A DNA stretch of 64,000 bases from Oscillospiraceae bacterium. Lineage in GTDB: Bacteria; Bacillota; Clostridia; Oscillospirales; CAG-272. Below, piece after piece: positions 18,664 to 21,600 of the stretch. The stretch spans positions 58,343 to 122,342 of the forward strand of contig SVTY01000004.1 in assembly GCA_015063535.1 (NCBI GenBank). The letters are read 5' to 3'. Each line of letters opens with the position of its first letter. Position 1 is the first letter of the stretch. The notes below the pieces were generated by a model, which was not told the DNA's origin, searched no databases, and was given only the letters and a program-made list of their open reading frames with translations. A program made the translations under genes and the position numbers.

Positions 18664-21600
18664 ATGGCATATAAAACACGGCAACAGATCTATCAAGAAA
18701 ATCTGGCAAGGAGAGCCGGATATCTGAAATCTCCCGCGCAGCGCAGAGCCGAAGCGCAGGAGCGTCTCAGAGCGGCGCAAGCCGCCAAGCAGGCACAGGC
18801 GCAGGAGGTGGAGACAAAGATCAAGGCGGCATCTGAAAATGTCAATCCGATCTGGCGAACCTTATCAACGGTAAATCGTGTTCATGGCAAGGTCGCCACG
18901 GGTGCGTTGGGGGCGATCGAGGGCTTGGTCGATACGGTGATCGGCATCGGCGGAGCGATCGGCGGTGTCTTTGACGACGACATTCAAGAGGGGGCGCAGA
19001 AGATCATCGCCTACAACGCCACCGAGGAATGGGTGGGCAAGCACATCGACGAGCTGACCAAATATTCCTATACCGAAGGAAACAAGGTCGGCGAGATCAT
19101 CGAGGGCGTGGCATCGGGCGTGGGTCAGATGCTTCCCACTGTGGCGGCGGCAGCCATTACGGGCGGCGGCTCGTTGGCAACCACAGCGGCAACCAAAGCC
19201 GTCAGCCTTGGCGTCACGGCAACCAGTGCCGCAGGCAATGCCATGCAGGATGCCTACAACGAAGGCGCCGACTACTATCAGGGTCTTGCCTACGGCGCCA
19301 CCAGCGGTGCTTTGGAGGCGGTCACCGAAAAGCTCTCGGGCGGAACCATCGGAAGGATCACAGGCGTGGGCAAGGGCTTTGCCGATGATGCACTGAAGAA
19401 CGTGGGCAAAACGGGCATTGCCCGCATTGCCAAGGAAGCCGTCGGCGAGGGCGTGGAGGAAATGATCACCGAAGCGGCAAGCCCTGCCCTGAAGAGCATT
19501 TACAAGGGAAGAGAGGGGCTTCGGGAATACGGCACGCTCGAATTTTACGGACAGGTGGGAGAAGCGGGCCTTGTGGGTGCTCTGACCTCCGTGGCATTCG
19601 GACAGACGGTCGGCAGAGCCACTCTGCGGGGCGGCAATGCGGACATCAACGAAGCATTGGAATCCATCCGAGAGATCGACCAAAAGACCGACAAGCGGAT
19701 CATCACCTCCGATCTGACCGAGCGGGATATGGAAAGCATATCCCGGGCAAAGGGAGAAAACTATCGGAATATCGAGCAGGTGCTGAAGAAGATGGACGGC
19801 GAAAAGCGGGCGAAGATGATGACCCGCTACGGCTTTGACGGTATGTTCGATTCCGATGGCACGCTGAGAGCTGATTTTGCCGCCTCCAACGGCTTTTCGG
19901 TATCGGATGGGAAAGTGGTCGCCAACACGCAGAACCGTGTCACAGAGGCAAATTTACGCTATGTGGCACCGTCTCTGCGGAACAACCGCACCCGCATTGC
20001 CGAGGACTTGGCGGCGATCAATGAACGCCGCAGCGAGGGAAGCGCTCCTGTTGCGGTGTTCGGCGGTACGCTGTCCGCCGAGGGCGAGCAGGCATACAGC
20101 CGCTTGAAGGCGGCTGTGGCGAAGCTGAACCGCAAGGCGAACAGCCGTATCAATGTCACCGTCGTTACCGCCAACCCCGATTTCCAAGGCGTCTCCGTGC
20201 AAAAAAATAACATCTACATTGCTGCAGATGTGTTGGAAAACACCGCCCTTGCTGAACAGCTTGCCAAGCAAGTCGAGCAGACGGAGCAAACCGAGCAAGA
20301 CACAGCTCTTGACAATTTCGCCGAGGTGAGGTATAATAGAAAAAGCGATACCGAAGATTTATATACCGCTACGGATGCTTTTGTAAAAGAGGTTCACTAT
20401 GTGGACAGGCATTCCTTCGCACGAAGTCTTGCCAATAAAACCTCCGATATCCAAGAGGGCGAAACCAAGAATTTACATATTTATTGTGCTAAGAATATTT
20501 ATGTATTTGAAGCAGTCGGATACATGCAGGGTACGATGATTTTTTCGGTAAGTACGGATGCAAAAAAACAAAAAGAAAAAGAGAGAGGGAGATTTTATTA
20601 TGGCACTGACCGAAACCGAAAAGAAACTGATTTTGGAGCTGGCAGAAACCGTATTGAGCGAGGACGATCAAATCACTACACTGACAGTTTTGCAAACAGA
20701 GGAACAGAGAAAGCAAATGATTCGCTTCTTGCAGGAGAATCCCAACGCAACAGAGCAGGAGATTTTGAAAGAAGAAGTGAGGCTAATCAAGATACACGGG
20801 AAGAAGTAGATAGAATTGTTCATGAACTTCGGAAAAAATATGGAGAGGATTCAGCGCAAACAAATAAAATAAGAGATACCGCCGACCGAATTAACGGCCT
20901 TGAGCGCCCCAAACCAAACGAGGGTTACGCTCTAACAAACGGTATCTCTGATGATAGTATATCAGATTCTTCCGAAAAAGTCAATACCGATTCGAAAAAA
21001 ATTTCACATACCCCTATCAACACCGACCACGCCGTGAAAACGCTGATCCACGAAACGACCCACTTTGAAGAGGGAACGCCCGAATATTACGAGTTCATTC
21101 GTTTCCTTGCCGAGGATGAAAGTCTGATCGAGGAAACGATCCAAATGCTTACCGAAGAAAAGACAGGGTATGGCTTTACCAAGGAGCAGGCGAGTGTCGC
21201 CATGCAGAAGTTCGAAAACGGCGAGAAGCTCACCGAGGCGGAGCGGGAATTTATTTCCGAGCTAAACGCCCACGCCTCCGAGAAGCTGCTGGGCGGCAGT
21301 CAGGCGTTCATTGAAAAGTTAATACGGGGCGACAGCACACTGGCAGAGAGGGTGCTGGGCCGCATCACCGACGCTAAGGCGGCATTGGAGAGCCACCGTT
21401 CCCCCACCGCCCGAGGGCAGTATCTGCGCCTGAAGCGTGCGGAGCAACTCTATATGAAAGCCATTTCCGCCGCCGGTATGGGGTACTACAATGGTAAGAT
21501 TACGGTGAGGGAAGAAGAGGAGCAGAAACAGTACAATAGAAAAACTCAGATAGATGATCGGTTACAAATAGAAGTTTTGCGATCTATTGGCAGAAAGAGT

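Follow-up and report, generated by a model that had tools for sequence, protein, structure and literature searches.

An internal promoter and a probable small gene in the second reading frame of a giant polyvalent protein gene suggest an effector-partner cassette in gut Clostridia

A window of 64,000 nucleotides (nt), from contig SVTY01000004.1 of an Oscillospiraceae bacterium, contains a phage-like element with a giant open reading frame (ORF), inside which a second ORF of 69 amino acids (aa) lies on the same strand, one base out of frame (+1). Comparison with other gut Clostridia marks this nested ORF, in our judgement very probably, as a real gene. Its four-helix product is conserved together with an ATG and a Shine-Dalgarno (SD) site, the codon changes favour the +1 frame over the frame of the giant ORF (the main frame), and in several loci a sigma-70-type promoter stands upstream of it, written into the codons of the main frame.

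We propose that about 20309-20840 form a self-contained cassette, in which an internal promoter in a linker between domains, a main-frame alpha/beta domain, an SD with ATG and the +1 four-helix gene follow one another. The giant ORF would read across the small gene in its own frame and thereby acquire a disordered, unconstrained linker, and codon choice in the small gene would be restricted such that this frame meets no stop. The small protein would be made separately on the late mRNA from its own ribosome-binding site (RBS), and from the internal promoter in a lysogen or whenever else the late operon is not transcribed. It is predicted to bind the domain encoded just upstream and might neutralise it in the producing or lysogenic cell, possibly also when a related phage injects a polyvalent protein of its own. 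Taken as a whole, a cassette with a nested, antidote-like partner is an explanation that we consider reasonably likely.

The nested ORF and the selection acting on it

When 201 genomes of the same family were searched in all six frames, the peptide had homologues in four of them (E 1e-6 to 5e-3), and most of these matches lay inside long ORFs, one base out of frame. The main-frame domain, used alone as a query (alignment A2), recovered seven loci in named Clostridia metagenome-assembled genomes. In all eight loci, the window included, a homologous +1 ORF of 68-77 aa follows directly after the domain; it stops just short of a conserved main-frame helix, and stops abound in the third frame. A profile built from 11 peptides matched in 14 of the 399 scored genomes of the class, which belong to several families. 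Counted together, there are 27 homologous places in gut Clostridia genomes, with L002/L022 and L005/L026, each a pair of loci on one and the same contig, entered as one each. A further match, L038, was false, falling within an unrelated ORF of 265 aa, and was removed before the count.

An ATG aligned with that of the window and preceded by a purine-rich SD 6-9 nt upstream is present in 11/11 close homologues, and inspection by eye put the number of places with an ATG and a purine-rich SD at about 22 of 27. Across the small ORF, the main frame is open from end to end in 25 of the 27 places, the exceptions being L044 and L039, and the third frame holds 7-16 stops. In 21 of those 25, the main-frame ORF is at least 413 aa long or reaches the end of the locus. 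Short main-frame ORFs of 107-188 aa occur in four places (L003, L029, L032 and L042); considered as stand-alone genes, these had no convincing start and were read as fragments. When the peptide was held fixed and its codons were replaced by random synonymous ones, the main frame stayed open in just 0-3.7% of trials per place. Because the main frame would so seldom be open by chance, the codon choice of the nested gene appears to be constrained in a way that lets the big protein read through. A distant 53-aa relative of the peptide (E 1.3e-5) with a strong AGGAGG site was seen in L039 (G554:C21, 1501-1662), where it stands alone after an scpB-like gene, with no overlapping frame, and may represent a free-standing form.

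Selection was assessed on an alignment of 19 of the 27 members (171 pairs), from which the eight most divergent members or those with an uncertain start were left out. Differences per site at +1 codon positions 1, 2 and 3 amounted to 0.54, 0.40 and 0.61; the third position of the main frame is its most conserved one, the reverse of what is seen in a normal coding frame. Amino-acid identity was 32% in the +1 frame and 20% in the main frame, with mean BLOSUM62 scores per column of 1.36 and 0.42, respectively. All nine ungapped pairs showed more synonymous changed codons in the +1 frame (12-21) than in the main frame (1-7), and for L003 against L025 the synonymous and non-synonymous changed codons numbered 12/13 in the +1 frame and 1/24 in the main frame. 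This pattern indicates that purifying selection acts on the +1 protein and that the main frame is merely kept free of stops. Since selection falls on the small protein in this way, it is probably the giant ORF that reads through the small gene, which reverses the direction of overprinting implied by an earlier note on this stretch made from the sequence alone.

The family is represented by 51 short and five longer proteins among 5.8 billion database proteins; none of them has a Pfam domain, and none carries a name beyond "hypothetical protein". A tblastn search of cultured phages and plasmids gave no match to the peptide or to a 184-aa main-frame stretch, and a scan of viral contigs with alignment A2 confirmed 0 of 38 pattern matches. 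The region 20200-20950 is covered with 0 differences and 0 gaps by contigs of two other faecal metagenome runs, which may share their source with the window, and no variants were found within 20200-20850 among metagenome contigs. An assembly slip or compensating sequencing errors were ruled out by independent contigs together with the conservation across many genomes.

The coordinates of the features are collected in Table 1. Over the bases of the nested gene, the main frame reads GTDRNRKETDFGAGRNRIERGRS. The main ORF belongs to a genome (G000) of 1.67 Mb in 22 contigs and combines both hallmarks of large polyvalent proteins: an LPD domain above the Pfam threshold, and a giant protein encoded by a phage element. 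The LPD3 domain (Pfam PF18798) occupies aa 1036-1144 (E 6.7e-15, 55.7 bits against a cut-off of 27), and the protein also matches phrog_22978. Genes for a replication initiator, a large terminase, a P22-like portal, a major head protein and virion or tail-fibre-like proteins stand upstream, so the main ORF is taken as the last gene of the phage-like element.

Table 1 Features of the nested gene and its surroundings, in positions of the window.
Feature	Position	Strand	Basis
Main ORF, 2489 aa; large polyvalent protein, last gene of the phage-like element	18664..26133	+	Pfam and PHROGs matches
Sigma-70-type promoter TTGACA-17-TATAAT, 12 of 12	20309..20337	+	Lies over main-frame codons L-D-N ... 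Y-N at the module start
Main-frame alpha/beta domain, motif DRHxFARSLANKT	20329..20607	+	Conservation; predicted local distance difference test (pLDDT) about 90; predicted docking surface
Shine-Dalgarno-like AGAGGGAG, 8 nt before the ATG	20584..20591	+	Sequence; SD conserved in homologues
Probable nested gene, frame +1, 69 aa, four-helix protein (stop included)	20600..20809	+	Family, coding signature, AlphaFold2
Main-frame linker rich in R/G/N/D/E over the nested gene	20608..20781	+	pLDDT <50; stop-free; sequence unconstrained
Main-frame helix EEVDRIVHELRKKY, conserved; begins where the nested gene stops and marks the module end	20797..20838	+	Conservation; helix at residues 157-170 of the model
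Structured element (about 80 nt), highly conserved in its nucleotides and in the reading frame of the big ORF, lying 63 nt past the nested stop	20872..20949	+	

The internal promoter

The two hexamers of the promoter, TTGACA at 20309-20314 and TATAAT at 20332-20337, are separated by a 17-nt spacer. Throughout the genome, 159 perfect TTGACA-N16-18-TATAAT sites were found, 138 of them with a 17-nt spacer, where base composition predicts 0.5; given this excess, perfect sites in this organism are almost certainly selected promoters. When sites at least 60 nt inside an ORF of the same strand were counted, with 150 aa as the minimum ORF length, just 11 of the 159 qualified. Ten of these intragenic sites lie in ORFs of at most 434 aa, several within about 100-200 nt of the ORF end, and the site of the window, 1.6 kb into a 7.5-kb ORF, is the sole perfect site genome-wide that is found deep in a long gene.

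The window, L025, L028 and L036 each have a site matching at 12/12 positions, which falls within the big ORF, shares its codon phase with the others and precedes the small ORF by 276-363 nt; weaker sites were found in L031 and L035 (11/12) and in L026, L034 and L040 (10/12). The arrangement TTGnnn-17-TATAAT occurs at the module start in nine loci, four of which are perfect, and the hexamers are kept in homologous modules while the spacer and the flanking amino acids vary. In an unbiased count, 13 Y-N dipeptides fell 230-400 nt ahead of the small ORF, and ten of them use the codons TATAAT, where local codon usage would predict 33%; in nine of the ten, TTGnnn precedes at a distance of exactly 17 nt, including the four perfect cases. 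The codon skew and the TTGnnn spacing suggest that the promoter seems to dictate the residues of the linker between modules, rather than the reverse.

For the domain itself, a start on the internal transcript was considered at a GTG at 20401, preceded by AAGAGG (by eye), and was rejected as not conserved, the equivalent residue in seven homologues not being V, M or L. As no conserved main-frame start follows the promoter, the small ORF would be the sole conserved translatable unit on this transcript. On both elements the earlier note, which had described a perfect intragenic promoter followed by an SD-like site, an ATG and a 69-aa overprinted gene, has held up well: each part is present in the sequence, the promoter recurs in related loci, the small ORF has the marks of a conserved protein gene lying over a disordered main-frame stretch, and it is the +1 frame that is the better conserved of the two.

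The 37-nt promoter stretch 20308-20344 is also matched, with five differences, by unrelated contigs in three of four faecal metagenome runs, where it is followed by a different leader that ends in a Shine-Dalgarno-like sequence. Two more perfect promoters of the window, at 26241-26269 and 28811-28839, lie just past the phage element and precede genes for a P-type ATPase and a BspA-like leucine-rich repeat (LRR) protein.

Predicted binding and the role of the small protein

AlphaFold2 models the peptide, from an 11-row alignment, as four helices with a mean pLDDT of 88.3 and a predicted template modelling score (pTM) of 0.73. In the model of the 184-aa main-frame stretch (8 rows), residues 8-93 adopt the order alpha-alpha-beta-beta-beta-long helix, in agreement with the small alpha/beta domain that the earlier note had placed just upstream. 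Over residues 94-151, which correspond to the bases shared with the nested gene, the pLDDT drops below 50 and the chain is predicted to be disordered, and a short helix follows at residues 157-170.

A complex of domain residues 1-100 with the peptide, as the earlier note had suggested predicting, reached a median score of 0.78, and the best of three controls reached 0.01; in calibration, the mark was attained by 58 of 80 complexes with solved structures and, among 110 mismatched pairs, by 2. Contacts were 100% concordant between runs, and the partner had a pLDDT of at least 89. In the predicted interface, the sheet and long helix of the domain (residues 46-61 and 71-90) meet helices 1, 2 and 4 of the peptide. 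The peptide is always found with the same kind of upstream domain, and the subfamilies of the two change together. On the strength of the model, we regard binding of the peptide to the upstream alpha/beta domain as fairly probable.

Five database proteins (P0052-P0056) carry the upstream segment and the four-helix domain as one in-frame fusion. P0052-P0054 are what an A8 run of the L032 lineage would give if shortened by one A, and P0055 and P0056 are fused elsewhere. These fusions hint that the two parts may work together. The fused proteins of the L032 lineage end at the four-helix stop and could reflect phase variation, decay or homopolymer error.

A copy of the small gene also occurs apart from the domain. 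In L003, a stretch of 245 nt reaching from the SD to just past the stop is 83% identical to L025, with dissimilar flanks; it sits between ftsH and a trpB-like gene and has no upstream domain. Of other fragments, one adjoins an ABC-transporter gene and one a tRNA gene, both chromosomal contexts. The chromosomal orphan resembles an orphan immunity gene, which would argue for a protective role that is independent of the domain. Because of the co-occurrence with the domain, the complex prediction, the fusions and this orphan copy, an antidote-like partner is the role we favour, and immunity is accordingly put forward as the most likely function of the small protein, if only tentatively.

Several points weigh against the cassette explanation. 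Judged from the window by itself, an open +1 frame is nothing unusual, as random synonymous codons with the main-frame amino acids fixed leave it open in 82% of trials (P = 0.82), and the evidence for a gene is therefore the comparison with other genomes. The homologues that enter this comparison are related to each other, and the counts overstate their independence. A search for RNA sequencing runs containing the window sequence had none listed. Ten of the 27 places have no upstream site of 10/12 or better; among the seven perfect sites, the one in L042 is the promoter of a tRNA gene, and those of L003 and L029 stand between genes and may or may not serve the small gene. On the + strand, no terminator-like site follows the small gene between 20809 and 24551. 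The predicted binding comes from one structure model with shallow alignments (8 and 11 rows), for which the calibration holds roughly, and the joint change of domain and peptide subfamilies could be simple linkage. Neither peptide nor domain has a significant family match in Pfam, PHROGs, NCBIfam or PADLOC, and Foldseek searches of both models against the Protein Data Bank (PDB) returned nothing at E up to 0.001. The domain has no obvious conserved catalytic residues, its invariant positions being mostly hydrophobic, so that its toxicity is purely inferred.

Wider fold comparisons point in no particular direction: the best neighbour of the peptide is DdrC at Z 7.4 and that of the domain a PAS domain at Z 4.4, both within the noise stated for such comparisons (for helical bundles in the case of the peptide), and a protein atlas gave no usable match. 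Alignment A5 covers, for 19 loci, the 100 aa that precede the nested gene; in it, one member matches the Pfam family ART (NAD:arginine ADP-ribosyltransferase) at E 7.7e-4, and some modules may follow such a domain.

The main rival keeps the binding and changes its purpose: the small protein would bind the domain as a chaperone, a packaging adaptor or a second effector subunit, keeping it soluble or fit to be loaded into the capsid, rather than as an antidote. The predicted complex fits this equally well, the natural in-frame fusions suggest that the two parts can act as one unit, and the domain shows neither catalytic-looking conserved residues nor a toxin match. A co-translated chaperone, however, needs no strong promoter of constitutive type within a late gene, and a chaperone would be of little use as an orphan copy at a chromosomal site that has no domain. 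We consider this rival unlikely, but it is the one to be taken most seriously.

Less probable still is that the small gene is an intragenic "moron" unrelated to the neighbouring domain, i.e., a regulator, a superinfection-exclusion factor or a host-modifying factor expressed in the lysogen, for which the linker is merely a position where a gene is tolerated. Its own conserved promoter and RBS and the existence of orphan copies are compatible with such a gene, and the non-significant fold neighbours of the peptide include small DNA-binding helical domains, DdrC among them, below noise level. What makes this improbable is the constant pairing with one kind of domain whose subfamilies change along with those of the peptide, as well as a complex prediction that passes its controls and the occurrence of fused forms.

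The four-helix module might instead be made mainly as a C-terminal extension of a truncated big protein, through ribosomal frameshifting or transcriptional slippage on an A run. An A7 run (20561-20567) does lie within the short open +1 part upstream of the ATG, and L032 has its A8 run just after the ATG (1496-1503), at which P0052-P0054 are fused by the loss of one A; P0055 and P0056 are joined at other points. It is nevertheless the ATG and the SD that are conserved, and no slip site is shared among the loci. In many places no more than 0-8 open codons precede the ATG in the +1 frame (0 in L036, 1 in L033, 5 in L031 and L037), and the L003 orphan retains exactly the stretch from SD to stop. 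Five fused proteins stand against 51 separate ones in the database, and homopolymer errors could explain some of the five, which leaves this route very improbable.

Finally, that the +1 ORF is no gene and a by-product of a purine-rich linker, in which E/K-rich codons read one base off give R/G/N/D and which stays open readily in the resampling described above, can be set aside almost entirely, being contradicted by the substitution pattern, the synonymous excess and the amino-acid conservation; selection on the +1 protein is likewise indicated by the conserved start, the orphan copy, the homologues called as genes of their own and the confidently predicted fold.

The earlier note had also compared the locus with the toxin-then-immunity order of MuF-type polymorphic toxins. 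An order of domain then partner does fit the cassette proposed here, but nothing marks the domain as toxic, given the lack of a family or fold match and of catalytic-looking residues. The assignment to a MuF-type locus is not borne out: a MuF (Phage_Mu_F) domain is absent from the whole main protein (Pfam, E up to 0.1), in which LPD3 is the sole Pfam family, and the domain is internal (aa 556-648 of 2489), with the partner ORF inside the continuing ORF.

Spread of the module and comparison with known systems

Downstream of the closing helix, eight close loci continue with unrelated sequence, which indicates that the module is shuffled between polyvalent proteins. Other genomes carry diverged modules in tandem: G202 and G237 have a pair each in one ORF, spaced about 0.5 kb, and G192 has several. 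In G192, L021 (G192:C17, 7448-11300) is a remnant polyvalent gene between clpC and rpsB that holds seven +1 ORFs of at least three families. For the second family, present in two copies, synonymous and non-synonymous changed codons number 15/21 in the +1 frame and 3/34 in the main frame; for the third family the signal is ambiguous (11/33 and 12/32). A short repeat in both orientations borders the remnant pieces of L021 at about 7430-7480, 10800-10900 and 11220-11300. It reads …QGTVPCV… on one strand and …NTGDGSL… on the other and looks like a repetitive extragenic palindromic (REP) element or a miniature inverted-repeat transposable element (MITE).

The seven +1 ORFs of this remnant, together with the +1 signature of the second family, lend some support to a more general arrangement, which we offer as a speculative possibility: phages of gut Clostridia may build their polyvalent proteins as chains of effector-partner cassettes, with partner genes hidden in the +1 frame of the linker after each domain and equipped with their own promoter and RBS. 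If this is true, one injectable polypeptide would carry many effectors, each cassette would keep its antidote through recombination, and lysogens as well as chromosomes that bear orphan copies would be protected when related phages inject such proteins. Small ORFs enclosed in a longer ORF of the same strand are not called by gene finders, and giant polyvalent proteins would then hide a second layer of genes. The arrangement would also be a new way to keep an effector and its partner in one recombining cassette with the long polypeptide unbroken, and a compact natural case of interacting proteins encoded in overlapping frames, with a promoter written into coding sequence.

As proposed, the cassette combines known kinds of arrangement, namely overlapping genes, effector-partner cassettes and morons. 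Large polyvalent proteins of phages and conjugative elements were described by Iyer, Burroughs, Anand, de Souza and Aravind (2017, PMC5512222), who liken small ORFs neighbouring polyvalent genes to polymorphic-toxin cassettes. The window agrees with what is described there in its giant multidomain LPD3 protein, its phage-like element and its short modules shuffled between contexts. It differs in the overlap: the searched text makes no mention of an overlap, a linker, an internal promoter or a frameshift, and does not describe second-frame genes with their own promoter and RBS. Full-text searches, which covered few subscription journals and accessed sources in part, found no published description of nested genes in polyvalent proteins, and a prior description is possible.

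With polymorphic toxin/immunity cassettes (Zhang et al. 2012, PMC3482391), the module shares a domain followed by a small partner, tandem diverged modules and chromosomal orphan partners, and the searched text of that survey makes no mention of an internal promoter or an alternative reading frame. The partner gene of the window, in contrast, lies inside the continuing ORF, in another frame, and not after its stop. The module also departs from MuF-type and polymorphic toxins in that there is no MuF domain, the domain is internal and not C-terminal, and any toxicity is putative.

Same-strand overlapping genes of phages and viruses offer another comparison. Both frames are open in 25/27 places here, with the purifying selection pointing to the +1 protein, and the frames (0/+1), the pairing of an ordered with a disordered product and the asymmetric selection are as in such genes (reviewed in PMC8227390). 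Here the constrained frame is a small nested gene and the other a stop-free linker of a 2489-aa protein, and the two products are predicted to bind each other.

RelE/ParE type II toxin-antitoxin pairs resemble the module in having a small alpha-alpha-beta-beta-beta domain and then a small helical protein, here predicted to wrap the sheet and helix. Several ParE/RelE chains are among the weak fold neighbours of the domain (Z 2.6-3.2, within noise), with no sequence match, and unlike in those pairs the domain is part of a giant protein.

Phage morons are units of promoter, gene and terminator inserted between late genes. The nested gene is similar to them in its own promoter, its small size and its place inside a late structural operon, with expression in the lysogen possible, and differs in lying inside coding sequence, not between genes, and in that no terminator was found after it.

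Past the closing helix, the big ORF contains the conserved structured element listed last in Table 1, where it reads …RDTADRINGLERPKPNEGYALTNGIS…. Its predicted RNA fold has a z of -3.2, with compensatory changes in 2 of the 20 predicted pairs; an Rfam search of 20200-21300 gave no match, and the genome of the window has one copy only. The element may act as a structured RNA or mark a site of recombination or cassette joining, and its membership of the module is uncertain. Many metagenome contigs match just 20860-20949, with unlike flanks. An exact 23-mer of the element was found in nine other genomes; in seven of these it lies in frame in a long ORF (at least 644 aa), and in five of the seven it follows "…IYDIT(N/K)K" or "…LYDITNK".

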